Origin: Bacteroidota bacterium
Lineage (GTDB): Bacteria > Bacteroidota > Bacteroidia > Bacteroidales > WCHB1-69
Direction: 5' to 3'
Length of the DNA: 64,000 bases
Assembly (NCBI GenBank): GCA_023413895.1
Contig: JAEZOU010000003.1
Location: 62,254-126,253, forward strand
Shown: in pieces, positions 6,753-34,968 of the stretch
Numbering within the stretch: position 1 is the stretch's first letter
How the letters are laid out: every line of letters begins with the position of its first letter
Translations under genes and position numbers: made by a program
The notes under the pieces: model-generated
Told to the model about the DNA's origin: nothing
The model's database searches: none
The model's input: only the letters and a program-made list of their open reading frames with translations

Positions 6753-7051
6753 GTTTTTACCTATGCAGAAAATTTGAGTTTTACTCTCTGACTCCTCTAC
6801 ACGCAAAGACCACATACTTGCTACCAGATTGTCCTCTCAAATTTCAGATATTTACCAAACATATACAACTATCGCATGATTCTATTCCACAAACCATATT
6901 TATTCTTTTATTCACATTCTAAAAACCTCAATTTATATCAGACACCAACAACTTATTGCATCCCATCTTAAAACAAAAAATAGCACTTTCCGTCTAGTCT
7001 TTTATTCTATATTTTTACTAAAAACAAGCCTATTTGTATTATTTTTTTTCG

Positions 7052-15791: not shown

Positions 15792-16223
15792 TTATGGAAT
15801 AGAAACCTTATCATTATCAACAAGGACGAATGTCAACAATCCTGATACACAAAGATTTCCTGATACTTTAATTTCAGCATTAACGACAAAAAGAAGATTT
15901 TTACGTTGAATAATTTGAGCTTTTATTTGCAACACATCTCCAGGTCGTACTTGATGTTTAAAGCGCACCTTATCGATACCTGCGTAAAAAGGAGTTCTTC
16001 CGACGAGTTCATCAACTAGGAGTAAGCATGATGATTGTGCCATAATTTCGCAGAGGATTACGCCGGGCACAACAGGATAACCTGGGAAATGCCCTTGTAA
16101 AAAGAACTCATCACCTTTTACAGTATATGTTGCATAAGCCACATCATTTTCAAGATGGACCTCATCTACGAGCAACATTGGGGCTCGATGAGGCAAAATA
16201 TTCATTATTTCAGTCCGATTCAT
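15792..16223 (-). CDS. fabZ: 3-hydroxyacyl-ACP dehydratase
   Basis: 143 aa hotdog fold with ILPHRAPMLLVD and GHFPGYPVVPGVILCE. Confidence 0.85.
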   Translation of the reverse strand: MNRTEIMNILPHRAPMLLVDEVHLENDVAYATYTVKGDEFFLQGHFPGYPVVPGVILCEIMAQSSCLLLVDELVGRTPFYAGIDKVRFKHQVRPGDVLQIKAQIIQRKNLLFVVNAEIKVSGNLCVSGLLTFVLVDNDKVSIP

Positions 16224-16232
16224 ATTTCAAAA

Positions 16233-17468
16233 TTAATCGTTACAAATACGAAGAGCAACACAACCATTTTGTCCTCCAAATCCAAATGAATTTGAAATTG
16301 CCATATTGGCATCGTAACGTCTTGCCACATTAGGCACATAGTCCAAGTCACAATCAGGATCTGGAGAAAGCAGGTTAATAGTTGGCGGGAGGACACCATT
16401 TTTCAGAGTTAGTGCAGTAGCTATTAATTCAACAGCTCCAGCGGCGCCCAACAAGTGTCCCATCATTGATTTATTTGAGCTAATAGGAACATTAGCGGCG
16501 GTTTGATGTCCCAGAGCTATTTTTATAGCTTGAGTTTCTGATTTATCATTAAGAGGAGTTCCTGTACCATGAGCATTGATATATAATTTATCTTTATCAG
16601 AGTTATAATTTGCTTCTTGGAGTGCGAGAGCTATTGCCCGAGCGGCGCATTTTCCTTCTGGATGAGGAGCAGTATAGTGGTGGGCATCGCAGGTATTTCC
16701 ATAACCACAAACTTCTGCATAGATTTTGGCACCTCTTTTCTTAGCGTGCTCATACTCTTCTAAAATCATCACTCCGGCTCCTTCACCGATAGTAAAACCT
16801 TGTCTTCGAGAATCAAATGGGAGAGAAGCTGTTTCGGGATTATTCGTTCTGGAGAGGGCACGACAATTTGTAAATCCGCCTATAGCGATAGGAGTAATTG
16901 CGGCTTCGGCACCGCCAGCAATAATTGCATCGGCATATCCGCCTTTAATACAACGATACGCTTCGCCAATGGCATGTGTAGAACTTGCGCAAGCCGTAAC
17001 TACGGGCAGGCAGGGGCCTTCAGCGTGATGAATAATAGCTACATTTCCAGCAGCCATATTAGGAATCATCATAGGAATAAATAGAGGAGAAACTCGTCCT
17101 GCACCATTTTGTAACATCTTAGTATGTTCATTATGGAAAGTTTTAATTCCACCAATACCTGAGCCTATATAGACGCCTAATCGGTCAGGGTTTACAGAGA
17201 GTTGGCTATCGGTCATTGCTTGTTGAGCTGCTGCCATAGCATATTGAGTAAATAGGTCTGCGCGACGCGCCATATCCTTATCAACTCCAAAATCTTCAGG
17301 TTTAAAATCTTTAACTTCACCTGCGATTTTCACTACCAATTCATCAGTTGGAATAGATGTAATTTCAGAAATTCCTAATACACCATTTTGCAAACTATTC
17401 CAATAAGTAGCAATATCCTTTGCGATGGGAGAAATCACCCCCATACCTGTTATAACAACACGTTTCAT
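16233..17468 (-). CDS. fabF: beta-ketoacyl-ACP synthase II
   Basis: 411 aa. Active-site Cys in VVTACASSTHAIGEA, His in NAHGTGTPLND, and SNKSMMGHLLGAAG. Confidence 0.9.
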   Translation of the reverse strand: MKRVVITGMGVISPIAKDIATYWNSLQNGVLGISEITSIPTDELVVKIAGEVKDFKPEDFGVDKDMARRADLFTQYAMAAAQQAMTDSQLSVNPDRLGVYIGSGIGGIKTFHNEHTKMLQNGAGRVSPLFIPMMIPNMAAGNVAIIHHAEGPCLPVVTACASSTHAIGEAYRCIKGGYADAIIAGGAEAAITPIAIGGFTNCRALSRTNNPETASLPFDSRRQGFTIGEGAGVMILEEYEHAKKRGAKIYAEVCGYGNTCDAHHYTAPHPEGKCAARAIALALQEANYNSDKDKLYINAHGTGTPLNDKSETQAIKIALGHQTAANVPISSNKSMMGHLLGAAGAVELIATALTLKNGVLPPTINLLSPDPDCDLDYVPNVARRYDANMAISNSFGFGGQNGCVALRICND

Positions 17469-17486
17469 TTCAATATATTAATTAGA

Positions 17487-18437
17487 TTAATTCCATTGTA
17501 AAACACATGCACCAGAGACGAATCCTGCGCCAAAAGCGCTCAGCACCAAATTATCTCCGGATTTTATTTTATTAGTTCTCACCAATTCATCTAAAAGGAT
17601 TGGGATACTAGCGGAAGAGGTATTTCCGTATTTATCTAGATTGAGAGGGAACTTCTCTTTATCGCAGTTGAAATTAGCTCTAATAGAATCTATAATACGA
17701 GCATTTGCTTGATGTAGTAAAAACCAATCCACCTGAGACATTTCCAAACCTGCTTCTTTCAGTACCACATTTACATCCTGAATTGAGGAAGAGACAGCCA
17801 TTTTAAAAACATCACGGCCAGACATTACTAATGGATTTTGCATTTCTGTTCCTTCATCAAAAGGAGTTTGCTCCATTTTTCTTTGGTAGTAAAGCACTTC
17901 GGGTTTTGAAGTTGTGGTTAAGCGAATCGACTTCAGTCTATCTCCTTGAGAAACCACAACTGCTCCAGCGCCATCGCCGAAAAGCACAGAAGTATCGCGT
18001 TCCTTCCAATTGCAAAATTTTGAAGGCTCTTCGGCACAAATAATCAGAATATGGTTTGCGCGACCAGCTTTCAGCAAAGCTTCTGCCATATCTAAGGCAA
18101 AAATAAAACCCACGCAAGCACCATTAATATCAACACAAGGGCATTGAGCTTCCAACCGTTTCTGGAGAATGCAGCTCATTGCTGGAGTTACAAAATTATT
18201 TGCCACATTAGAACATATAATATAGTCTAATTGTGAAGGGTGAATATTGGCTGCTTCAATAGCAGACTGAGATGCTTTAACAGCCAACTCTAATAAATCT
18301 TCCGTAGTGATTAATCTACGTTCCTTAATTCCTGTTCTTGAGATAATCCATTCATCAGAAGTATCCAAAAATTTCGACAAATTTTCATTTGTAACCGATT
18401 GTTGAGGCAATGCGCTGCCTGTTCCTACTATTTTCAT
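17487..18437 (-). CDS. fabH: beta-ketoacyl-ACP synthase III
   Basis: 316 aa. Cys in NGACVGFIFAL, His in LLHQANARI, Asn in YGNTSSASIP. Confidence 0.85.
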   Translation of the reverse strand: MKIVGTGSALPQQSVTNENLSKFLDTSDEWIISRTGIKERRLITTEDLLELAVKASQSAIEAANIHPSQLDYIICSNVANNFVTPAMSCILQKRLEAQCPCVDINGACVGFIFALDMAEALLKAGRANHILIICAEEPSKFCNWKERDTSVLFGDGAGAVVVSQGDRLKSIRLTTTSKPEVLYYQRKMEQTPFDEGTEMQNPLVMSGRDVFKMAVSSSIQDVNVVLKEAGLEMSQVDWFLLHQANARIIDSIRANFNCDKEKFPLNLDKYGNTSSASIPILLDELVRTNKIKSGDNLVLSAFGAGFVSGACVLQWN

Positions 18438-18493
18438 GTGTATAGTTTTTACGATGGCAAAAGAACAATATTTTACTTTTTGTATTTCTGTAA

Positions 18494-18600
18494 TGTGGTA
18501 GAAATCAATAATTTTGTGGTAAAATCATCAAATATGGGGTGAAATTTTTGATATAAAGGTGAATTAGAAAAAAACAAAAAAAGGATTGGGGTGAATTAGA
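18494..18600 (+). promoter_or_regulatory. array of five phased direct repeats (consensus GKGGTRAAWT); candidate LytTR operator
   Basis: TGTGGTAGAAATC (18494), TGTGGTAAAATC (18515), TGGGGTGAAATT (18535), AAAGGTGAATTAG (18555) and TGGGGTGAATTAG (18587). The GGT cores sit at 18497/18518/18538/18558/18590, giving spacings of 21, 20, 20 and 32 nt. Confidence 0.55.
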
Positions 18601-18611
18601 AATAAAAGTTG

Positions 18612-18619
18612 TATTTTTG
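18612..18619 (+). promoter_or_regulatory. -7 promoter box for the LytTR gene
   Basis: TATTTTTG lies immediately downstream of the last direct repeat and ~95 nt upstream of the ATG at 18714. Confidence 0.45.
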
Positions 18620-18713
18620 CCAAATGAAAGGAGGTTCAATTGCACAACTAATTAACCAATTGATAAATTCTGAATAAAGATTACCCATAAACGCATAACA
18701 ACAAGACCGCCTT

Positions 18714-19574
18714 ATGATGATAATCAATGACTTAACAAGAAAAAAAGATATCTTTCGATTTATTCTTAGTGTTGCTTTTTTTGCTATTATTTTTGTATTG
18801 ATATACAAACCTGCAGGATTTCAATACATATTAAAAAGCGACAACAATCTCACTTGGTTTCTTGAATGTGGCACCATTATTGGGGTTGGAATGATAATAT
18901 TGATTTCTAGTAGACTTATTTTATATCGAGTTTCTCAAAAGAGAGAATTAACAGACCTACAATATGCCGTTTGGCTTATAGGAGAAATTTTTCTTCTCAC
19001 CTTTATATTAACCTTATGGGCATACTTTTTAAATCCTGATGGTCCTTCGTTTTTGGATATGGGATTTCGTATGTTTGTGAATATCATTAGTATATTAGCT
19101 ATTCCATATACGATTGGAACTTTATTAGAGATTTTACGCTTAAAAAACCGGAAACTTGCGGAGTCAGAGAATCGCAAAATAAAAGTTGTGGGTTCACAAC
19201 CCACAACCATTAATTTTTATGATAGAAATGGAAAATTTACAATTTCCATCAAGAAAGAAGATATTCTATACATCAAATCTGCCGATAACTACGTTGAGAT
19301 TTTCTATTTAGATGAGGGAAAAGTTATGAATCAACTACTTCGCAACTCGTTACGGAATATTGAGAATATGTTTGTTTCAGCAGGGCTCATTAGATGTCAT
19401 CGGCTTTACGTTGTCAATATGCAGAAAGTGAAATTAGTAAAACGTTCTAAAGAATCAATATTAGTTTTAGAGTTATCCGAAACGACAGAATCTATTCCTG
19501 TTTCTTCCACATACACAAAGAGCATCATGCAATATATTACAGAGACTAGTGCAGAGAATGCTGCAACAGAATAG
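18714..19574 (+). CDS. membrane-anchored LytTR-family DNA-binding protein (no receiver domain)
   Basis: 286 aa. It has ~4 predicted TM helices in the first ~150 aa. The C-terminal LytTR pattern is ILYIKSADNYVEIFY...LIRCHRLYVVNMQKV. Confidence 0.75.
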   Translation: MMIINDLTRKKDIFRFILSVAFFAIIFVLIYKPAGFQYILKSDNNLTWFLECGTIIGVGMIILISSRLILYRVSQKRELTDLQYAVWLIGEIFLLTFILTLWAYFLNPDGPSFLDMGFRMFVNIISILAIPYTIGTLLEILRLKNRKLAESENRKIKVVGSQPTTINFYDRNGKFTISIKKEDILYIKSADNYVEIFYLDEGKVMNQLLRNSLRNIENMFVSAGLIRCHRLYVVNMQKVKLVKRSKESILVLELSETTESIPVSSTYTKSIMQYITETSAENAATE

Positions 19575-19576
19575 AA

Positions 19577-21292
19577 TTATCTTAAATTTGCAAGAAGATC
19601 GTTCTTCAACTCTGGAGTAAAACGAATAATTGACGTTTTATTCTTTAGAATTTCAGCCATTCCCCAATGGATCATCAACTTACAAGAGTGCAAATAAGTA
19701 TTATTCCGATTTGCATCTAACAATAGGAGTGTACACATAATTAAGATAGCAGATGATTCCACTAACTTTCTAGCATTCAAGTCGAAGGAAGTTGGCTTAT
19801 CGGAGAATTGTTCTGCGGTAGCGCACATCTCCGCATAATATTGTTTCATTACAAGCATTTGTTCACGCAGTTCTTGCAATTCAGCAGAGATTGATTTTGA
19901 GAGATAGTTTTCTACTTTTTGCAAGAAGAATCCATTTGTTACACCTCGAATTGCTGCGACCACTTGTAATTGAGAAGTTCCTTCATAGATTGACAAAATA
20001 CGGGCATCACGATACAATCGTTCGCAAGCGTACTCTTTCATATAACCGGAACCACCATGAACTTGAATAGAATCGTAAGCAATTTGATTTGCATACTCAC
20101 TTGAGATTAACTTCAGCAGAGGCGTATAGAAATCTGCACTTTTTTGATTCTCTTTCAATTCAGTTTTCTCCTCAGCAGTTAGCGGACGTTCTTTAGCGAT
20201 AGCTTCCAGAGCCTTATAGTGATCCACGAATCGAGTTGTTTCGTACAATAGTGTACGGATTGCGTCAGTTTTAGCACGCATAAGAGCAAGCAATTCATAA
20301 ACTTGTGGAAAACTTAGGATCGAATTTCCAAATTGTTTTCGTTGTTTAGCGTAGCACAATGCTTCTTGATAAGCAGCTTCGGCCAATCCAACAGATTGAG
20401 CGCCAACGCCGAGACGAGCACCATTCATCAGCGACATCACATATTTTATCAATCCGAATCTTCTATTTCCCACTAATTGAGCGGGGGCATTATCGAATAC
20501 GATTTCTGCGGTTGGAGAACCTTTAATTCCCAATTTATTTTCTATTCTTCTAATTTTTACTGCATTACTTTTTCTATCATAAAGAAAACAAGAGAGGCCA
20601 CGTGCATCATCTGTTCCCTCTTCAGAGCGTGCCAAAACCAATTTTATATCGGCATCACCATTGGTTATAAAACGTTTAACACCATTCAATCGCCAGCAAT
20701 TGGCTTCTTCATCGAACGTTGCCTTTAGGCGTACGGATTGCAAATCAGAACCTGCATCTGGTTCTGTAAGATCCATTGAGCAAGTAGCACCGGCGTGGAT
20801 TCTAGGTAAGAATTGTTCTTTTTGTTCTTCAGAGCCAAATTCACAGATTGTTGAAGCGCAATCTTGCAATCCCCAAATATTGGCAAAACTAGCATCGGCA
20901 CGAGAAATAATCTCGGCTGCCATTACATAAGGAAGATACGGGAAATTCAACCCGTTATACTTACGAGGTAGCGCCATACCATAGAGTCCAGCATCGCGCA
21001 ACGCATTATGATTTTGCGAAGTTCCTGAAGCATAAAGAATTTCATTATTCACCACCTTTGGACCTTCAGCATCAACGCCTTCTGCATTTGGAGCTATCAA
21101 ATCTGCGGCGATCTCACCTACAATTTCCAAAACTAACTTATAGTTTTCCATTGCTTCTTCATAACTTGCAGGAGCTTCTACATAAGATTTAGCATCCAAA
21201 AAATTTCGTTCCTTCAAATTTACGATTCGTTCCATATCATCATTTTGAAGATGGAACAATAGATTTTTATTATCTGAGAAAAAATTAGCCAT
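19577..21292 (-). CDS. acyl-CoA dehydrogenase (long, ~570-aa form)
   Basis: 571 aa. ACAD motifs are present (CSMDLTEPDAGSD, RFITNGD, QVHGGSGYMKEYACERLYRDARILSIYEGTSQ). It lies directly downstream of etfA. Confidence 0.85.
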   Translation of the reverse strand: MANFFSDNKNLLFHLQNDDMERIVNLKERNFLDAKSYVEAPASYEEAMENYKLVLEIVGEIAADLIAPNAEGVDAEGPKVVNNEILYASGTSQNHNALRDAGLYGMALPRKYNGLNFPYLPYVMAAEIISRADASFANIWGLQDCASTICEFGSEEQKEQFLPRIHAGATCSMDLTEPDAGSDLQSVRLKATFDEEANCWRLNGVKRFITNGDADIKLVLARSEEGTDDARGLSCFLYDRKSNAVKIRRIENKLGIKGSPTAEIVFDNAPAQLVGNRRFGLIKYVMSLMNGARLGVGAQSVGLAEAAYQEALCYAKQRKQFGNSILSFPQVYELLALMRAKTDAIRTLLYETTRFVDHYKALEAIAKERPLTAEEKTELKENQKSADFYTPLLKLISSEYANQIAYDSIQVHGGSGYMKEYACERLYRDARILSIYEGTSQLQVVAAIRGVTNGFFLQKVENYLSKSISAELQELREQMLVMKQYYAEMCATAEQFSDKPTSFDLNARKLVESSAILIMCTLLLLDANRNNTYLHSCKLMIHWGMAEILKNKTSIIRFTPELKNDLLANLR

Positions 21293-21307
21293 ATCAATAA
21301 ATTTAAA

Positions 21308-22330
21308 TTATTTCTGACAAGCAGAATAACACTTTATCAACTTTTCCAACACTGACGTTACATCACCCACAATTACATAATCAGCCATTGTATTAATGGG
21401 TGCTAATGGATCGGTATTGATAGAGATAATTTTGGCTGATTCAGCCATTCCTGCGCAATGTTGCACAGCACCTGAGATACCGCATGCCACATACAACTTC
21501 GGGCGTACTGTCACCCCCGTTTGGCCGATTTGGCGTTGTGGTTCGGTAAAGCCTGCATCAACGGCAGCACGCGTTGCACCCACCTCACCGCCAATCAATG
21601 AAGCATATTTGTGCAACAACGAGAAATTCTCTTTTGAACCAACTCCATAGCCACCGGCAACAATAATTTGTGCATTCTTAATATTGATGGAGTGAGCTTC
21701 TACCTCTCGGGTTATAATTTCCACAGCAAGATCTTCATCATTCAGAAATAATTGAGGGTTAATTTTTTCCACAACACCTTTATATTCTGTGTTATAAACC
21801 TCTTTTTTCATTACACCTTCTCGTACGGTTGCCATTTGTGGGCGTGTTTCAGGATTCACAATAGTAGCAACAATATTTCCACCGAAAGCAGGACGAATTT
21901 GGTATAAAAGTTGAGAATATTCTTTCCCTTTTTTAGCATCCGTATAACTTCCCACCTCCAAATTTGTACAATCAGCAGTCAATCCGCAGGAGAGACGTGA
22001 GGCCACGCGTGGAGCGAGGTCTCGGCCGATATGAGTTGCTCCCAAGAGCAAAATTTGAGGATTATATTGTTTCACGACATTCACTAAAATTGAAAAATGG
22101 GGCAAAGTTCTGTAAGGAAACAGATGATTAGAATTTGCCAAAATCACTCTATCGACGCCATATTGAAACAACTGATTTTCAGCACCATTTAAATCATCAC
22201 AAAGCACTAAAGCATCAACTTGCACCTTTAACTCATCTGCTAATTTTCGAGCTTTTGAACATAACTCCAAGCTCACTTCAGCAAACTCACGATTATCATT
22301 AACTTCGCAATAAACTAAAATATTATTCAT
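21308..22330 (-). CDS. etfA: electron transfer flavoprotein subunit alpha
   Basis: 340 aa with the FAD-binding C-terminal pattern IGQTGVTVRPKLYVACGISGAVQHCAGM. Confidence 0.9.
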   Translation of the reverse strand: MNNILVYCEVNDNREFAEVSLELCSKARKLADELKVQVDALVLCDDLNGAENQLFQYGVDRVILANSNHLFPYRTLPHFSILVNVVKQYNPQILLLGATHIGRDLAPRVASRLSCGLTADCTNLEVGSYTDAKKGKEYSQLLYQIRPAFGGNIVATIVNPETRPQMATVREGVMKKEVYNTEYKGVVEKINPQLFLNDEDLAVEIITREVEAHSINIKNAQIIVAGGYGVGSKENFSLLHKYASLIGGEVGATRAAVDAGFTEPQRQIGQTGVTVRPKLYVACGISGAVQHCAGMAESAKIISINTDPLAPINTMADYVIVGDVTSVLEKLIKCYSACQK

Positions 22331-22338
22331 AAAACTGA

Positions 22339-23202
22339 TTAACTTAAAATGTGTGTATCCATCAAATCCTTAGTTAACGTCATCAAATCCTCGTCAGAAT
22401 TTGACAACACTTGAGATTCCTTTTGAGCGAGCACCATACTTTCAATATTCTTCACTTTAGTTGGCGAACCTTGCAAACCCAAACGTTGCGGATTTGCGTT
22501 AATATCTTCTGCATTCCACTCTATTATTTGAAGATAATCTTTTGATTTAAAAATAGTTGAAACATTATCGAACTTACCTTCATGAAGTGATGTTGCATAC
22601 TTATATTTCATTACTCTAAGAGCATTTCTAAAACGGCAAGATTTTGCAGAACTTTGCACAGTAATTAGAGCAGGAAGAGTAGTTTTTACCACCTCAATAC
22701 CATTTTCGAGTCTGCGTTTTACAACGATTGCATTTGGAGTAACTTCCAGGGCCTCTTCGGCATAAGTAATTTGAGGGATATTCAGTTTTTCAGCCACTTG
22801 TGGCCCTACTTGTGCGGTATCACCATCAATAGCTTGGCGGCCACACAACACCAAATCTACGGCACCCAACTTTTTGATAGCCATAGATAAGGCATAAGAA
22901 GTTGCCAATGTATCGGAGCCTGCAAAACGGCTATCACTAATAACGGTACCCGAATCGGCACCTCTAAATATTGCTTCACGGACAATTTCAGCTGCGCGAG
23001 GCGGTCCCATTGTCAAGACATGCACTTCAGCATTACAGAGATCTTTGATCGATAGTGCCATTTCGAGCGCATTTAAATCTTCGGGATTAAAAACAGCGGC
23101 GAGTGCACCACGATTTATCGTACCATCGGTACGCATAGCCTCCTTACCCACATTTCGGGTATCGGGCACCTGTTTCGCCAATACTACAATTTTCAAACTC
23201 AT
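22339..23202 (-). CDS. etfB: electron transfer flavoprotein subunit beta
   Basis: The start is taken at the second Met (MSLKIVVLAKQVPD), the typical EtfB N-terminus. The listed start at 23223 adds 7 aa. Confidence 0.85.
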   Translation of the reverse strand: MSLKIVVLAKQVPDTRNVGKEAMRTDGTINRGALAAVFNPEDLNALEMALSIKDLCNAEVHVLTMGPPRAAEIVREAIFRGADSGTVISDSRFAGSDTLATSYALSMAIKKLGAVDLVLCGRQAIDGDTAQVGPQVAEKLNIPQITYAEEALEVTPNAIVVKRRLENGIEVVKTTLPALITVQSSAKSCRFRNALRVMKYKYATSLHEGKFDNVSTIFKSKDYLQIIEWNAEDINANPQRLGLQGSPTKVKNIESMVLAQKESQVLSNSDEDLMTLTKDLMDTHILS

Positions 23203-23266: not shown

Positions 23267-23341
23267 TGCAGGTAAAAGGGGGTAATATTCCGTTAAAACG
23301 CAGAATTTGGGGTGTATTTTGGAATAATGTGGTGAATTAAG
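23267..23341 (+). promoter_or_regulatory. second cluster of the GKGGTRAAWT motif, upstream of etfB-etfA-acd
   Basis: GGTAAAA (23271), GGGGGGTAATATT (GGT at 23281), TTGGGGTGTATTTT (23311) and ATGTGGTGAATTAA (23331). The spacings are 10, 30 and 20 nt. Strand orientation is the same as in the fabH-proximal array. Confidence 0.45.
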
Positions 23342-23425
23342 GGCCCAAAGGAGCGTAAAAAGGATAGTATTGGATCGAAAGATGAGTAAAATTTTGCAGA
23401 AAAAAAATAGGAAACGGGGCAAAAT

Positions 23426-23589
23426 GCGTGAGGGATGGAAGCGGTTATGAGCGCCGAATTTAGAACTTAGATCTTAGCATTAGAGTTAGGGAATGGTGAA
23501 GAATTGAAGCGAGAGACAGCGGCGCGAAATTTGAGCGGACAGCCCGACGGCGCGGGCTGGAATTTGTGCGTAGGATAGCCGGCACGCCC
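23426..23589 (+). repeat. GC-rich interspersed intergenic repeat, copy 2
   Basis: GCGTGAGGGATGGAAGCGGTTATGAGCGCCGA ... GGCGCGAAATTTGAGCGGACAGCCCGACGGCG ... GTGCGTAGGATAGCCGGCACGCCC. It lies between the divergent etfB and rpe promoters. Confidence 0.85.
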
Positions 23590-23659
23590 AAATAAAACTG
23601 AAGATTCAAAAGGCAAATTAAAACACCGATTTTGATAGAGAAAAAATCAAAAAAAATTA

Positions 23660-23686: not shown

Positions 23687-24358
23687 ATGAGTAATATTAT
23701 TTCGCCCTCACTTTTATCCGCCGATTTCGGCAATTTATCTTCTGATATTCAAATGCTTAACGACTCAGAAGCTGATTGGTTACACCTTGATATTATGGAC
23801 GGAATTTTCGTTCCTAATATCTCATTTGGCATGCCAATTGTTCGAAAAGTAAGAGAACTTTCAGAAAAGCCGCTTGATGTTCACTTGATGATTATGCAAC
23901 CCGAACGCTATATTGAAGAGTTTAAATGCTGCGGTGCAGACCTTTTGACTATTCATTATGAAGCATGCACACACCTTCACCGAACCATTCATCAGATTAA
24001 AGATATGGATATGTTGGCGGGGGTAGCGCTTAATCCCCACACACCCGTTTCTCTTTTAGAAGACATTATTGATGACGTTGATTTAGTGTTGATTATGTCT
24101 GTAAATCCAGGTTTTGGTGGGCAGAAATTCATTGAACGCACATATCAAAAAGTTAGAGACTTAAAGGAGATGATTGAGCGCAATGGATCTGAAACCTTGA
24201 TTGAAGTTGATGGTGGGGTAAACCTTGACAATGCTCCTTTGTTGCGCGAAGCTGGTGTTGACGCCTTTGTTGCAGGCAATACTGTTTTCAAAGCCGCCAA
24301 TCCTATCGAAACTATTTCATTACTCAAAGACTCTGATAAATCTGAAGAAACAGAATGA
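23687..24358 (+). CDS. rpe: ribulose-phosphate 3-epimerase
   Basis: 223 aa with LHLDIMDGIFVPNISFG, MSVNPGFGGQKF and EVDGGVN. Confidence 0.9.
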   Translation: MSNIISPSLLSADFGNLSSDIQMLNDSEADWLHLDIMDGIFVPNISFGMPIVRKVRELSEKPLDVHLMIMQPERYIEEFKCCGADLLTIHYEACTHLHRTIHQIKDMDMLAGVALNPHTPVSLLEDIIDDVDLVLIMSVNPGFGGQKFIERTYQKVRDLKEMIERNGSETLIEVDGGVNLDNAPLLREAGVDAFVAGNTVFKAANPIETISLLKDSDKSEETE

Positions 24359-25923
24359 AAGCTTGGAAAGTATTCCTCTTTATTGTCTCAGTCATAGGCT
24401 TACTAACTATCATCTCATTGCTTATTCCTGCGGAAGAATGGAAGGTTGGTAAGTTAACCTTAAAATTTCCGAAACCTGAATCGATTTTGGTTCGAGAAGA
24501 GGAAGAATATATTGACCCAGAAGAGATTATAAAAGCTTTAGAATTAGAAGCCCGCATCATAGATTCTACATATAAGAGTTTGGAGGACACAGTAGCGTAC
24601 TATAAGAAAGCGATGGCAATGCCGACCAAATTCTGCTTTCCGAATAACGATTACACCTATTACGACCATTTCTTTGCTGCATTAGAAAGTGCACGTAGTC
24701 AAGGACGCACGATTCGAATTATGCACTACGGAGACTCTCAAATCGAGCTTGACCGCATCTCATCCAATATTCGAGAGTACTTTCAATCACATTTTGGGGG
24801 TGGTGGGCCAGGACTTCTTCCACTTGTTGCCTCAGTTGGCTCGCCCACAATTTATCAATCATACTCAGGGAACAGCACACAATATGCACTTTACGGAGAT
24901 GGTTCGAGAAATTCGGATCGCAACTATGGCGTAATGGCCAAATCTTTTAGAATTTATGGCAATAATAGTTTTTATGTTTCATCTCCGAAAAAAGTAAAAT
25001 CGGTAAGGCAAAAAAGTTACAATAAGATCCAGCTTTTCTGTACACCTCGCAAAGGAAATTTCAAAGCAACTTTAATTAGCAAGGCCCATGGGGTGCGGCT
25101 TGAGCAACAGGCTGATAGCAATGGAACACAACTACTTACATGGAATTTAGACACAGCTATCAGTAATTTTACGCTTCAACTTTCGGGCGAAGCCGACATT
25201 TACGGCATTGCTGTTGACAATGGTTATGGGGTTGCTGTTGACAATATGCCGATGCGTGGAGCCAGCGGGACATTCTTTTCTCAAATGAGTGATTCACTTC
25301 TATCACACTATTTTGAAATAATAGATGTTGGAATGATTATTATGCAATTTGGTGGAAACAGCGTTCCCTCGTTACATAGTGAAAAAAGTGTTGACAAATA
25401 CGTAGAAAGCATTGGAAGACAGATTCGCTTTATGCGAAGAGTACGTCCAGGCGTTCCCATTCTGTTCATTGGGCCATCAGATATGAGCACACGCATTAAT
25501 GGAGTAATGAGCACTTACAAATGGCTTCCGCTTTTGGTCGAAAAACTTAAGGCGACGGTCGTTGAAAATGGCGCTGCATTTTGGGATTTGTACAATGTAA
25601 TGGGCGGTAAAGGCTCTATGATTTCTTGGGTAAAAAAAGGTTGGGCAGGTAAAGACTACATCCACTTTTCAACTCAAGGAGCTCAACAAGTGGGCGAGGT
25701 TCTGACTCAATCATTTCAATCGATGTATGAATTTTATAAACTTCGCAAGACCAATCCTGAGATAGATTTTAATGTGATTTGGTCTAAAATTCCTCAAGTT
25801 CAGCAACAAGATTCGCTCAACAATAGTTCCAAAGATATAATTCATACACAACATTATACAGGGAAAAACAGCAAGAAATCAACTCCACAAATTGTAACTT
25901 CTGACACTAATCAAAAACTATGA
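24355..25923 (+). CDS. SGNH/GDSL-type hydrolase or O-acyltransferase-like protein, N-terminal membrane anchor
   Basis: 522 aa. Block I HYGDSQ, block III FGGNS, block V DYIHFS. ATGA overlap with rpe. Confidence 0.6.
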   Translation: MKAWKVFLFIVSVIGLLTIISLLIPAEEWKVGKLTLKFPKPESILVREEEEYIDPEEIIKALELEARIIDSTYKSLEDTVAYYKKAMAMPTKFCFPNNDYTYYDHFFAALESARSQGRTIRIMHYGDSQIELDRISSNIREYFQSHFGGGGPGLLPLVASVGSPTIYQSYSGNSTQYALYGDGSRNSDRNYGVMAKSFRIYGNNSFYVSSPKKVKSVRQKSYNKIQLFCTPRKGNFKATLISKAHGVRLEQQADSNGTQLLTWNLDTAISNFTLQLSGEADIYGIAVDNGYGVAVDNMPMRGASGTFFSQMSDSLLSHYFEIIDVGMIIMQFGGNSVPSLHSEKSVDKYVESIGRQIRFMRRVRPGVPILFIGPSDMSTRINGVMSTYKWLPLLVEKLKATVVENGAAFWDLYNVMGGKGSMISWVKKGWAGKDYIHFSTQGAQQVGEVLTQSFQSMYEFYKLRKTNPEIDFNVIWSKIPQVQQQDSLNNSSKDIIHTQHYTGKNSKKSTPQIVTSDTNQKL

Positions 25924-27182
25924 AAAAGCTACTTTTTAGCATACTTATTATATTGGGAACACTCTCAATAGTAGCCCAAGAGGTGCAATATGTAGCTCTT
26001 GACACTTTTCCTTTCATCAAGTATGAAGCAGACACACTTGTCTTCGACAAAGACACCTCTCTTTTGGGTAATTTTTTCAAAAAGATGGAGAAGTTGATTG
26101 AAAATAATGAAGGAGAAATCAATATTATACAAATCGGAGGATCACATATTCAGGCGGGTACCATGTCACATACCATCCGTCGTAATCTACTACTCGCCTA
26201 CCCTACTTTAATTTCCAATCGTGGATTTGTATTTCCTTACTCCGTTGCTCCCAAATGTAACAATCCTATCGACTACCGAGTGCGCAAAAACGGAGAGTTT
26301 TCATTGGTAAGAAACGTTTATAAAGACCATAACAAACCACTAAACACCAGTGGTATAGCTGTATATACATCAGATACATTTCCAGAAATCACTATTCAAT
26401 TCAAAGATTCTATTCTTAAATTTCAAACTAAGAAACTCACTTTAGTAGGACATTCACAACCCAGCTACGTTGTACCTACAATTTGGGTAGATAGTTTAGA
26501 ATATTTTCCAACATCAATTGACACTATTTTAGGTCGTTACGTATATGATGTTGAATTTGGAGATAGTTTCACACTTCATCCCAACTGTAATGGCGACTCG
26601 CTGCAAGAGTTCACCCTGAACAGTCTCATTTTAGAAAATAGGAAACCAGGAATAACATTTCACTCGATAGGTGTTAATGGAGCGAGCGTTCCTGCCTATC
26701 TTCGTTGCGAAAACTTTGCACGTGATTTAGATCTTTTTCGTCCAGACTTAGTTATTTTCGGCATTGGAATTAATGATGCTTTCGATGCAGACTTCAATGC
26801 AGAAACTTTTGAGCAAAACTACATTCAGTTAATTCAAAAAATTCAAACCTATAATCCAGATTGTGCCTTTATCTTCTTTACGAACAACGACTCTTACAAA
26901 AAAGTTGCACGCAGAAAATATCAAGTAAACAGAAATGCTACTGAAGTTCAACGTGTTATGTACTCCTTGGCAAAGCAGACGCGCGGAGCCGTATTTGACC
27001 AATTTGAAATTATGGGCGGAATGACCTCAATGTACAAATGGTACACCAATAAGTTAGCAAAATATGACCGCGTCCATTTTACCAACGAAGGTTATGTGCT
27101 GATGGGAAATCTCTTTTACAACGCTTTCCTTCACGCTATGAAGAAGTATCAAAATAGTAATCAATCACTTAACATCGAATAA
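25920..27182 (+). CDS. SGNH/GDSL-type hydrolase-like protein, secreted
   Basis: 420 aa with a signal peptide. Block I variant IGGSH, block III GIGINDAF, block V DRVHFT. ATGA overlap with the upstream gene. Confidence 0.6.
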   Translation: MKKLLFSILIILGTLSIVAQEVQYVALDTFPFIKYEADTLVFDKDTSLLGNFFKKMEKLIENNEGEINIIQIGGSHIQAGTMSHTIRRNLLLAYPTLISNRGFVFPYSVAPKCNNPIDYRVRKNGEFSLVRNVYKDHNKPLNTSGIAVYTSDTFPEITIQFKDSILKFQTKKLTLVGHSQPSYVVPTIWVDSLEYFPTSIDTILGRYVYDVEFGDSFTLHPNCNGDSLQEFTLNSLILENRKPGITFHSIGVNGASVPAYLRCENFARDLDLFRPDLVIFGIGINDAFDADFNAETFEQNYIQLIQKIQTYNPDCAFIFFTNNDSYKKVARRKYQVNRNATEVQRVMYSLAKQTRGAVFDQFEIMGGMTSMYKWYTNKLAKYDRVHFTNEGYVLMGNLFYNAFLHAMKKYQNSNQSLNIE

Positions 27183-27197
27183 AACCCTTTAGAGGAG

Positions 27198-28916
27198 ATG
27201 AACTTAGAAAATATCAAGACATTTTTCACAACACTTCTATCATTCGATGACAAATATCCTTTGTTATTCACTCAATTTTATTTTTGGGCATTTTTCGCGA
27301 TAGTATTTGCAGGCTTTGCCGTTTTGCGTAACAAAATACTTCTTCGCAATACCTACCTCTTCTTTATCAGTTTATTCTTCTACTATAAAACCTCTGGATT
27401 ATTTGTTCTTCTTCTGATTTTCACTACGTTAGTATGCTTTATCACAGGGCGTGCCATTGATAAGTCCGCGCGAAATTTATTCCGCAAATTCTTTCTTTTT
27501 TTAGGAATCACATTAAATCTTTTTGTGCTATTCTACTTCAAATATGCATATTTTTTTACGGAAGTTTACAACTCCATAATGCATACTGAAATTCCTGTTA
27601 TCAATTATTTAGCGCAATGGACTAATGAATTTTCAGGCAAGGAGGTTTTCGATGCTAGTAAGATTCTTCTTCCGGTCGGTATCTCTTTCTATACATTCCA
27701 AAGTATTAGTTACATTATTGATGTTTATAGAAAGAAAATCACGCATATTCCTAATATTTTAAACTTTGGATTTTATGTAAGTTTCTTTCCAGGATTGGTT
27801 GCGGGACCAATTATTCGTGCAAGCCAATTTATGCCGCAACTTTACAAGAAATATTTCCTTACTAAACGTCAATTCGGCATTGCAATCTTCTGGATTCTAA
27901 ATGGTTTACTCAAAAAAATTATTATGAGTGACTATTTAGCCGTAAATTTTGTTGACCGAGTTTTTGACAATCCAGACCTATTCACTGCATTTGAAAACTT
28001 GTCGGCGCTTTTCTGCTATTCATTGCAAGTATATGCTGACTTTTCAGGTTATACCGATATTGCCATTGGAGTTGCGATGCTGATGGGCTTCTATCTCCCA
28101 CAGAACTTCAATTCGCCATACAAAGCCACCAATCCTGGGGCATTTTGGAGACGCTGGCACATCTCCCTCTCCACTTGGTTGAAAGACTATCTTTACATTC
28201 CGCTTGGCGGCAACCGTAAGGGCAAATTCCGCACGCAAGTTAACCTGATGGCCACAATGCTTTTAGGAGGTTTGTGGCACGGCGCAAGTTGGAATTTCGT
28301 GATTTGGGGCGGATTGAACGGCGTTGGAATTCTTCTATACAAATGGTGGCGAAACGTGAAGAAATTGCCTCGTACGATTAGCTCCGCGATTGTTTTCGCT
28401 GGATTTATCGCATTACAATACTACTACCCACGCCCAATTTTTATGATTGGCGTAGTCTGGTCCGGCACCTTCTTCTTCGGCATATTTATCGATTGGATCC
28501 ATCGTAACTGCTTTAAATTCAGGCCTATTCATTGGTTGGAAAGATGTTGGTGCATCTTCCAAACCTTTATCTTTATCTCTTTCACCCGACTCTTTTTCCG
28601 CTCCGGATCCAATCTTGACCCTGCGGAAGCTAATGCTACGGCATGGAACACTGCAAAAAAGATGGTAGGACAAATTGGAGGCACTTGGAATGTGGAAGCA
28701 ATTCCAGATATTATCTCTACCTACGCATCTGTTTTCATCCTCTTTGTAGTCGGAATGATTATCCACTGGCTACCGGCAAAATGGAAACAATGGTACAGAA
28801 TCCAATTCGCATACCTCCCCGTTTGGGTAATGATGCTGATTTGCGTTGCTGCAGTGTTTGTCGTTTATCAATTTGTCACTGCTGAGATGCAACCTTTCAT
28901 TTATTTCCAATTTTAG
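27198..28916 (+). CDS. MBOAT-family membrane-bound O-acyltransferase (AlgI/PatA/DltB-like)
   Basis: 572 aa polytopic protein. Contains FYTFQSISYIIDVY, WRRWHISLSTWLKDYLYIPLGGNR and the conserved His in GGLWHGASWNF. Confidence 0.85.
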   Translation: MNLENIKTFFTTLLSFDDKYPLLFTQFYFWAFFAIVFAGFAVLRNKILLRNTYLFFISLFFYYKTSGLFVLLLIFTTLVCFITGRAIDKSARNLFRKFFLFLGITLNLFVLFYFKYAYFFTEVYNSIMHTEIPVINYLAQWTNEFSGKEVFDASKILLPVGISFYTFQSISYIIDVYRKKITHIPNILNFGFYVSFFPGLVAGPIIRASQFMPQLYKKYFLTKRQFGIAIFWILNGLLKKIIMSDYLAVNFVDRVFDNPDLFTAFENLSALFCYSLQVYADFSGYTDIAIGVAMLMGFYLPQNFNSPYKATNPGAFWRRWHISLSTWLKDYLYIPLGGNRKGKFRTQVNLMATMLLGGLWHGASWNFVIWGGLNGVGILLYKWWRNVKKLPRTISSAIVFAGFIALQYYYPRPIFMIGVVWSGTFFFGIFIDWIHRNCFKFRPIHWLERCWCIFQTFIFISFTRLFFRSGSNLDPAEANATAWNTAKKMVGQIGGTWNVEAIPDIISTYASVFILFVVGMIIHWLPAKWKQWYRIQFAYLPVWVMMLICVAAVFVVYQFVTAEMQPFIYFQF

Positions 28917-34398: not shown

Positions 34399-34968
34399 CT
34401 ATTCTACTACTGGAGCTTCTTCAACATTACGAGTTGAAAGAACTGTAACCACAACGGTTCCAGGATTTTCAATTAAAGTAAGACCTTCGATTTTAATATC
34501 ACTAACTTTGATAGTATCGTTAATATCAAGAGATGAAATATTTAAGGTGATATTTTCTGGAATATTCTTTAATTCACCTCTAACTTTCAATTTTCTTACT
34601 TTTTTTGCTAATTTACCACCACGCAATACACCAGGAGAAGTACCTTCAATACGAACTGGAATACCAATTGAGATCTCTTTTCCGTCAACAACTTCTAAAA
34701 AGTCAACGTGTAACAACTTATCTGTAATTGGGTGGAATTGTGTTTCTTTAATAATAGCGATATGTTTTTCACCATTAATATCCAATTCTGCATATTTTAC
34801 CTCAGGTGTATAAATAATGCTTTGGAATTGTTTTTCATCTACTACGAAGCGAAGTTGTTTTTCACCGCCATAGATTACACAAGGGATAAGTCCTTGATTT
34901 CTTTGTGCTTTTGCATCTTTTTTCCCTACGTTCTCTCTAAGAGAACCGCTCATAGATACTGATTTCAT
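34399..34968 (-). CDS. rplY: 50S ribosomal protein L25/general stress protein Ctc
   Basis: The start is taken at the internal Met (MKSVSMSGSLRENVGKKDAKAQRNQGLIPCVIYGG). The longer listed ORF would run through its own promoter box. Confidence 0.85.
   Translation of the reverse strand: MKSVSMSGSLRENVGKKDAKAQRNQGLIPCVIYGGEKQLRFVVDEKQFQSIIYTPEVKYAELDINGEKHIAIIKETQFHPITDKLLHVDFLEVVDGKEISIGIPVRIEGTSPGVLRGGKLAKKVRKLKVRGELKNIPENITLNISSLDINDTIKVSDIKIEGLTLIENPGTVVVTVLSTRNVEEAPVVE

Follow-up and report, generated by a model that had tools for sequence, protein, structure and literature searches.

In the genome of a Bacteroidota bacterium (order Bacteroidales, lineage WCHB1-69), five short direct repeats lie between fabH and a divergently transcribed gene for a LytTR-domain protein, which raises the question of what these repeats bind and which genes they serve. 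In this study, the window, a stretch of 64,000 nucleotides (nt) of contig JAEZOU010000003.1 (positions 62,254 to 126,253, assembly GCA_023413895.1; coordinates below count from its first letter), was analysed together with related loci from other genomes. The analysis suggests that the array is quite probably an operator, i.e. a set of DNA docking sites, of the membrane-anchored LytTR factor encoded beside it. The divergent intergenic space extends from 18438 to 18713, with fabH on the minus side and the LytTR-domain gene on the plus side, and holds the following boxes:

18495 to 18505, plus strand: box R1, GTGGTAGAAAT; weak and distal, 21 nt from R2, matrix score about -3
18516 to 18525, plus strand: box R2, GTGGTAAAAT; exact consensus match, matrix score 12.3
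18536 to 18545, plus strand: box R3, GGGGTGAAAT; strongest box, matrix scores 19.0 and 19.7
18556 to 18565, plus strand: box R4, AAGGTGAATT; moderate, 20 nt from R3, matrix score 6.3
18588 to 18597, plus strand: box R5, GGGGTGAATT; promoter-proximal, 32 nt from R4, matrix score 17.0

All five boxes are on the plus strand, span positions 18495-18597 and share the core GGYRAA, the best form being GGGGTGAAA; R2, R3 and R5 are strong, R4 is moderate and R1 is weak. Measured at the GG before T (18497, 18518, 18538, 18558 and 18590), the distances between boxes were 21, 20, 20 and 32 nt. These are the number, orientation and spacings that an earlier note, made from the letters of this DNA, had given, and its consensus, GKGGTRAAWT, was found exactly in three boxes of the array (R2, R3 and R5). 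The other two are degenerate and weak: R1 has an A-to-G change relative to this consensus, and R4 is without its two leading G/K positions. In the weight matrix described below, the informative columns were 9 positions, GGGGTGAAA, followed by 11 bp of low information.

The first question is whether the array is a protein operator at all. The alternative, namely a chance cluster in A+T-rich DNA, a decayed tandem duplication, a repetition of promoter elements or an RNA leader that is structured or bound by protein, appears very improbable. It draws on the finding that the short core GGTRAAWT was not enriched across the window (18 copies vs 15.3 expected, the counts of 8-9-nt cores being non-significant), and on the box flank TTTTG in rumen lineages, which resembles promoter elements. 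Since the core alone was not enriched, the signal consists of clustering, the 20-nt register and conservation. The full GKGGTRAAWT occurred 5 times in the 64-kb window vs 1.43 expected, and 0 of 100 shuffles attained 5 copies, which speaks against chance. Two other matches in the window, at 34571 and 34610 (minus strand, 39 nt apart), lie inside a coding region with a low 20-nt-pair score and were discarded. The further forms of this alternative fared no better, as Tandem Repeats Finder detected no array, the folding z-scores of the two strands across the array were +0.23 and -0.58, and Rfam searches (permissive for 18000-19000, at the gathering threshold for the whole window) returned chance snoRNA-like matches and one tRNA elsewhere. 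Moreover, each of the two predicted -7 promoter boxes is downstream of the array in its own direction of transcription, so that the array is probably not transcribed, which argues against an RNA leader.

The weight matrix was derived from 98 sites in 45 loci of other genomes and was scored as 20-nt-spaced pairs on both strands. The best pairs of the window were R2 with R3 (31.2), R3 with R4 (25.3) and a pair upstream of etfB (23.7), followed at a distance by the next pair (11.2), and R3 was the top single match. The maxima of 200 Markov simulations had a mean of 10.3, with none above 22.9, and so remained below the observed dimers. A second matrix, made solely from distant loci in which the LytTR homologue adjoins a DUF6051 gene, returned the same top three pairs (26.8, 18.1 and 17.9; next 3.7), although it was independent of the clade of the window and contained no fabH-linked loci. 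The earlier note had named ubiquity of the motif in A+T-rich DNA as a finding that would count against an operator; within the window, only the fabH/LytTR and etfB regions carry the 20-nt register.

Lack of conservation was the second such finding that it had named, and here the boxes were kept while the spacers diverged, at 94, 83 and 66 % protein identity and down to 31 %. Three close relatives, at 94, 83 and 66 % (L004, L006 and L007, respectively), have the same gene order. In the four-way alignment of the intergenic regions, the cores of R2, R3 and R4 and both predicted -7 boxes were conserved, with little else. The R3 element ATATGGGGTRAAAT was unchanged in 4 of 4 orthologues, R2 was kept as TTGTGGCGAAAT in L004, L006 and L007, and AGGYGA of R4 was retained as far as the 66 % orthologue; the 83 % orthologue has a better copy of R1, GTGGTAAAAAT, at the same 21-nt offset. 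Conservation of boxes without that of spacers is a further argument against a non-operator reading.

A one-genome-per-species scan added 80 loci, almost all of them of Bacteroidales (a few being labelled otherwise or unlabelled), in which the LytTR homologues were full-length with 31-45 % identity. Overall, the gene was divergent from fabH-fabF-fabZ in 22 loci, extending to 31 % identity in rumen Bacteroidales; these fabH-linked operons often continue with fabG and sometimes fabD, and rumen lineages add etfB-etfA on the same strand. All fabH-linked intergenic regions examined held at least 2 same-strand GGYRAA-type boxes, often reading TTTTGGGTGAAAT, and an exact 20-nt pair was present in all but 3. 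In a second context, a DUF6051 alpha/beta-hydrolase gene was the divergent neighbour in 42 loci by clustering (41 intergenic regions were listed), and most of these regions held 2-4 boxes spaced 20 nt apart, which precede the LytTR homologue and share its strand. Furthermore, in 87 loci plus the window (88 sequences, 1.96 Mb counting both strands), the distances between same-strand GGYRAA pairs spiked at exactly 20 nt, with 76 pairs vs about 6 at neighbouring distances and echoes at 40 nt (21 pairs) and 60 nt. This exact register thus recurs across dozens of genera, which again speaks against chance. When both strands of the loci (about 12 kb each) were ranked in 78 non-redundant loci, the top 20-nt pair was, in 65, on the same strand as the LytTR homologue and at most 420 nt ahead of it, chance being about 2 % per locus; this was so both with fabH-fabF-fabZ and with DUF6051 as the divergent neighbour.

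These data also bear on the identity of the binding protein. It is improbable that the boxes are bound by a different, unlinked factor, for example of the AraC type, with the LytTR gene as just one of its targets, even though other families also use direct repeats at roughly two-turn spacing and the box sequence differs from the classical LytTR consensus. The LytTR homologue was the only gene invariably beside the boxes, in both contexts and in the metagenome, and it was always downstream on the same strand, whereas no other regulator gene recurred in the LytTR-homologue loci. In addition, motif pairs were not found with four more distant transmembrane (TM) LytTR paralogues of 22-29 % identity. 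The best computational evidence is that the boxes accompany the LytTR gene into the DUF6051 context, which points to the LytTR protein, and not a fab-specific factor, as the binder.

Two of these paralogues, at 22-25 % identity, were observed in settings of their own. The paralogue of L210 (1-3376), without GGGGTGAAA boxes, has a divergently transcribed neighbour fabK(NMO)-fabF-fabZ, and that of L208 (2501-5846), likewise without such boxes, has a B12-radical-SAM gene and a fatty-acid desaturase gene downstream. These settings give hints that membrane-embedded LytTR factors governing lipid genes may be a broader theme in the phylum. Separately, a box dimer scoring 27.8 was seen in Odoribacter (L056 10994-11027, minus strand), 5 kb from the LytTR homologue. 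It sits at the 3' end of a DUF4468/flavin-reductase-like gene, is followed by a terminator-like hairpin and an unannotated 515-aa gene, and was rejected as a regulon site for want of any tie to the regulon.

The gene next to the array encodes a protein of the following kind:

18714 to 19574, plus strand: gene of a 286-aa LytTR regulator, with four TM helices joined by a long linker helix to a C-terminal LytTR domain (residues 165-263)

The LytTR domain was matched by Pfam (E 1e-14), and a profile match to the structure 3d6w was obtained (E 4e-13). In the AlphaFold2 model (predicted local distance difference test score, pLDDT, 78), the TM helices comprise residues 10-30, 45-76, 81-106 and 113-153, the last of which runs into the linker, and residues 165-263 form a beta-rich domain. 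Foldseek matched this C-terminal domain to 3d6w, ComE (4cbv) and AgrA (3bs1/4g4k), with target-normalised TM-scores of 0.70-0.77 for 3d6w and AgrA and of 0.36-0.39 against full-length ComE. The N-terminal TM part had no Pfam match and no fold match in the PDB by Foldseek, and neither a Response_reg nor an MHYT match was found by Pfam in the protein. Moreover, no histidine kinase gene and no separate membrane partner gene were found in the neighbourhood, either in the window or in the orthologue loci. A DNA-binding domain and TM segments in one polypeptide are what defines transmembrane transcription regulators (PMC10269533), and both are present here. Judging from the structural model, the protein is a membrane-tethered one-component regulator, neither a response regulator of the AgrA/ComE class nor a pair of the LytTR regulatory system (LRS) type; the comparison with the AgrA/ComE class in the earlier note therefore does not extend to the make-up of the protein, given four TM helices and no receiver domain.

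The architecture of the operator that the same note had recognised was borne out. LytTR sites in the literature consist of 9-bp direct repeats separated by 10-13 bp (PMC11347149), and the array has 9-bp direct repeats with an 11-bp spacer, which falls inside that range; two or more repeats of this length on one strand, spacers within this range and an encoded, associated LytTR protein are all found here. The register of about 21-22 bp that it had expected gave way to a period of 20 bp. Its remark that the motif is unlike the AgrA-type consensus was correct, GGGGTGAAA being unrelated to the AgrA/ComE consensus, and the LytTR consensus is in any case loose and often unmet (PMC6193735).

The second question is which promoters the array serves. 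Bacteroidetes-type promoters have the -7 consensus TAnnTTTG, and two such boxes were predicted on either side of the array:

18612 to 18619, plus strand: predicted -7 box of the LytTR gene, TATTTTTG, matching the TAnnTTTG consensus
18458 to 18465, minus strand: predicted fabH -7 box, TTCTTTTG, 20 nt upstream of the fabH ATG

In both boxes a core was unchanged in 4 of 4 orthologues, TGTAYTTTTGCC for the LytTR gene and GCAAAAGAA for fabH. A sigma-70 promoter/terminator scan was uninformative, Bacteroidetes promoters being outside its coverage. The distance of 12 nt from the last repeat to the -7 box, given in the earlier note, was 14 nt when counted from the end of R5 at 18597, and 12 was obtained only with the longer unit GGTGAATTAG. 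GGTGAA of R5 begins 22 nt ahead of TATTTTTG and thereby occupies about -39 to -31 of the predicted LytTR promoter. On the other side, about 29 nt separate the end of R1 from the predicted fabH -7 box, and R1-R4 are at about -45 to -106 from the predicted fabH start. Of 65 loci, 24 were without any TAnnTTTG match after the last box. In the 41 having one, the commonest distance from the GGYRAA start of that box to TAnnTTTG was 22-26 nt (12 loci), as was also the case where the match followed within about 35 nt, and further distances clustered at 55-58 nt. In the loci with 22-26 nt, the proximal box occupies about -39 to -31, where a -33 element would be expected but TTTG is absent. An imperfect inverted repeat of 19 nt was also seen to bracket the array (18455-18473, TTGTTCTTTTGCC, and 18604-18622, TTGTATTTTTGCC), its arms being the two divergent predicted -7 boxes with a common context.

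The third question is which genes belong to the regulon. The flanking genes are those that had been claimed, fabH, fabF and a FabZ-type dehydratase gene on the minus strand and the LytTR-domain gene on the plus strand. The regulon proposed in the earlier note, the regulator and the fab operon, was widened, as etfB-etfA-acd would be added through a putative second operator that had not been reported:

15792 to 18437, minus strand: candidate target operon of fabH (17487-18437), fabF (16233-17468) and a FabZ-type dehydratase gene (15792-16223), from Pfam/NCBIfam
19577 to 23202, minus strand: candidate target operon of etfB (22339-23202), etfA (21308-22330) and an acyl-CoA dehydrogenase gene (19577-21292), from Pfam and the gene calls of L001 and L004; convergent with the LytTR gene
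23309 to 23338, plus strand: second operator, boxes E2, GGGGTGTATT, at 23309 and E3, GTGGTGAATT, at 23329, 20 nt apart
23279 to 23288, plus strand: possible weak extra box E1, GGGGTAATAT, 30 nt before E2, score 6.1

E2 and E3 precede the etfB ATG (23202) by 109 and 129 nt and are oriented away from etfB, as the main array is oriented away from fabH. Relative to the predicted etfB start they are at about -97 and -117, an offset of 31 nt (about three helical turns) from R2/R3. E1 was not conserved in L007, and its membership is doubtful. The etfB operator was retained in L004 (94 %) and, at the same distance, in L007 (66 %; 6885-6925), and an equivalent pair was found upstream of etfB in the L009-L011 lineage (L009 10635-10664). 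It is thus present in three lineages with a separate etfBA-acd operon (window/L004, L007 and L009-L011), whereas in rumen lineages, in which etfB-etfA follow fabG on the same strand, the sole operator is that at fabH/LytTR and a separate pair was not found. This pattern of fusion versus fission argues that the fab and etf genes share control. As for the surroundings, a G+C-rich block (0.49-0.57) with strong G skew was noticed at 23400-23600, between etfB and rpe, in A+T-rich DNA; it was partly conserved in the 94 % orthologue and had no Rfam match. Downstream of rpe, at 24355-28916, an operon without boxes was seen for a 522-aa protein without Pfam match, a GDSL-like lipase/acylhydrolase and an MBOAT O-acyltransferase.

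Further candidate members came from other genomes. A reverse scan of metagenomes with the pattern GGGGTGAAW-N11-GGGGTGAA returned 120 contigs, in 32 of which a LytTR homologue begins at most 450 nt downstream on the same strand. Other matches adjoin DUF6051, fabH, a KASIII-like gene or AMP-binding (acyl-CoA-synthetase-like) genes, while most of the remaining contigs were G+C-rich and were judged to be chance matches. In three contigs (L165 6885, plus; L202 1995, minus; L181 1334, plus), an exact dimer lies directly upstream of AMP-binding and KASIII-like genes, and in L165 a LytTR homologue is 1.8 kb from the dimer; from their sequence context, these genes are possible further members of the regulon. 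Tandem arrays containing GGGGTGAA with periods of about 20-62 nt were also observed (L101 1468-1785, L124 449-639 and L129 2867-3752). They were rejected as operators, being unlinked to LytTR genes and probably different repeat elements. In L017, L035, L052, L056, L068 and about 37 more loci, the LytTR homologue was seen divergent from DUF6051 with a box array between the two, an arrangement that prevails in Bacteroidales. On this gene arrangement, DUF6051 is probably a regulon member and a lipid-active enzyme; the sole related remark encountered in the literature concerns the joint occurrence of DUF6051 genes with genes for LytTR proteins and fatty-acid-CoA ligases.

A mechanism can be proposed from the observed boxes, register, conservation, gene linkage and LytTR fold. 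A single LytTR domain would bind to each 9-bp box (GGGGTGAAA with the core GGYRAA), and head-to-tail boxes with an 11-bp spacer and a 20-bp period would place 2-5 protomers on nearly the same DNA face. The strong boxes R2, R3 and R5 may nucleate binding, with the weak boxes R1 and R4 being filled at higher occupancy. Lying between two divergent promoters, the array could serve both, and autoregulation is implied by the position of R5 over the -33 position of the LytTR promoter. The putative regulon would comprise the regulator gene and the two operons fabH-fabF-fabZ and etfB-etfA-acd. None of the targets detected is more than 5 kb from the regulator gene, as we would expect for a factor unable to leave the membrane (cf. 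PMC10269533). The N-terminal four-TM domain would presumably sense a membrane or lipid cue, and membrane-bound protomers on the phased boxes would then switch on the LytTR promoter as well as the operons that are divergent or controlled from upstream.

The sign of this control was weighed in particular, and activation is slightly favoured over repression. The reasons are that no -33 TTTG is present where the box sits in LytTR promoters, and that most characterised LytTR proteins autoactivate from repeats that adjoin the -35 element. The competing model, which we regard as a considerable though lesser possibility, keeps the same protein and operator but makes the protein a repressor: the box over -33 would shut the LytTR promoter, the array would dampen the divergent fab or DUF6051 genes, and a membrane or lipid signal would lift the repression. 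The known FASII (type II fatty acid synthesis) regulators FapR, FabT and FabR are repressors, which counts in its favour, as does the overlap of the proximal box with the -33 position. In DUF6051-context loci, the distal weak boxes extend to the predicted -7 box of the divergent gene. In addition, repression from three repeats that overlap -35 is known for CoxC (PMC11347149), the one characterised factor with a TM-fused LytTR domain that the literature search yielded. However, LytTR promoters have no TTTG of their own at the distance expected for a -33 element, which suggests dependence on an activator, the strong boxes at fabH and etfB, at -66 to -117, are too distant upstream for simple occlusion, and most LytTR factors activate (PMC6193735, PMC11347149).

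Several findings weigh against reading the array as an operator through which the adjacent protein activates. L007, the 66 % orthologue, does not keep R5, and two further boxes (R1 and R4) are weak. The sites of the matrix were pairs selected by regular expression, so its core columns were fixed by construction. In 13 of the 78 loci, the top-ranking pair was not upstream of the LytTR gene, though several of these have degenerate boxes there and in 2 the etfB operator was the top pair. The promoter boxes are consensus-based predictions, a box over -33 is equally compatible with repression, as for CoxC, and the box sequence is unlike the AgrA/ComE-type consensus. Finally, linkage is an association and not the identity of a binding protein. 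The operator reading is nevertheless retained at the strength given at the outset.

With somewhat less than even confidence, it is proposed that the four-TM LytTR protein may be the first dedicated transcriptional regulator of FASII in Bacteroidota, a membrane-integral sensor of the bilayer state or of a lipid or fatty-acid ligand that drives fabH-fabF-fabZ(-fabG-fabD), the genes of the electron transfer flavoprotein and acyl-CoA dehydrogenase (Etf/ACAD) and, elsewhere, DUF6051 and acyl-CoA synthetases. The Etf/ACAD module is possibly a reductase or acyl-chain-processing step of the same pathway. A literature search found no link between LytTR and fab genes, no FASII regulator and no such circuit described for Bacteroidota/Bacteroidales, and the FapR, FabT, FabR and FadR paradigms were not encountered for Bacteroidales. 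Bacteroidales are dominant gut and rumen bacteria. If the proposal is true, a membrane-lipid homeostasis circuit would be conserved across this order, and the uncharacterised DUF6051 and Etf/ACAD module would be linked to lipid metabolism. It would also illustrate, in a natural system, how a transcription factor tethered to the membrane can have every detected target within a few kilobases of its own gene. For further study, the system offers an operator that is defined in sequence and period (GGGGTGAAA boxes every 20 bp), a compact putative regulon (fab genes, etfBA-acd and a DUF6051 hydrolase gene), the hypothesis of a lipid-sensing membrane domain and a candidate regulator in cultivable genera, its homologues occurring, for example, in Parabacteroides, Butyricimonas, Odoribacter and Bacteroides.

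As to known systems, the class of operator, LytTR direct repeats, is already known; what appears new is the box sequence, the four-TM LytTR cognate, an array of up to five boxes for two divergent promoters with a satellite, and the lipid regulon. Three-repeat operators have been described for RcoM and for the membrane-fused MHYT-LytTR protein CoxC (PMC11347149). CoxC of Afipia carboxidovorans resembles the present protein in being a single polypeptide with an N-terminal TM domain and a C-terminal LytTR domain, whereas the likeness of RcoM is limited to the LytTR domain and the triple-repeat site (PMC11347149). Both share with the present system more than 2 same-strand repeats of 8-9 bp, spacers of about 11-13 bp, a position near or over -35 (here of a predicted promoter) and targets, here candidate ones, beside the regulator gene. 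However, CoxC has a seven-TM MHYT domain and the present protein has four TM helices without MHYT; the box of CoxC/RcoM is TTNNNGCN, that found here is GGGGTGAAA; up to five boxes, two divergent promoters and a second operator are found here; and the targets there serve CO oxidation, while lipid-metabolism genes are predicted here.

The LRS regulators HdrRM and BrsRM resemble the system proposed here in comprising a membrane-controlled LytTR regulator, with autoregulation from repeats 11-13 bp apart before its own promoter (PMC6193735). LRS regulators autoactivate from direct repeats upstream of -35, and the conservation of repeat sequence between systems is low (PMC6193735). They differ in that the membrane inhibitor is a separate, co-transcribed protein, whereas here the membrane part is fused and the next gene is the convergent acyl-CoA dehydrogenase gene. 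AgrA (at P2/P3), ComE, PlnC/D and AlgR have the same DNA-binding fold (Foldseek 3bs1, 4g4k and 4cbv) and use imperfect 9-bp direct repeats about two turns apart upstream of a promoter, commonly for autoregulation, as is proposed for the array described here. Unlike these, the present regulator is membrane-tethered, without a receiver and a linked kinase, and its boxes are unrelated in sequence and have a period of 20 and not 21-22 bp. With FapR, FabT, FabR and DesT, the proposed system would share a dedicated regulator beside its fab genes and a small, lipid-centred regulon. Those four regulators are soluble, have an unrelated DNA-binding fold and sense acyl-CoA, acyl-ACP (acyl carrier protein) or malonyl-CoA.

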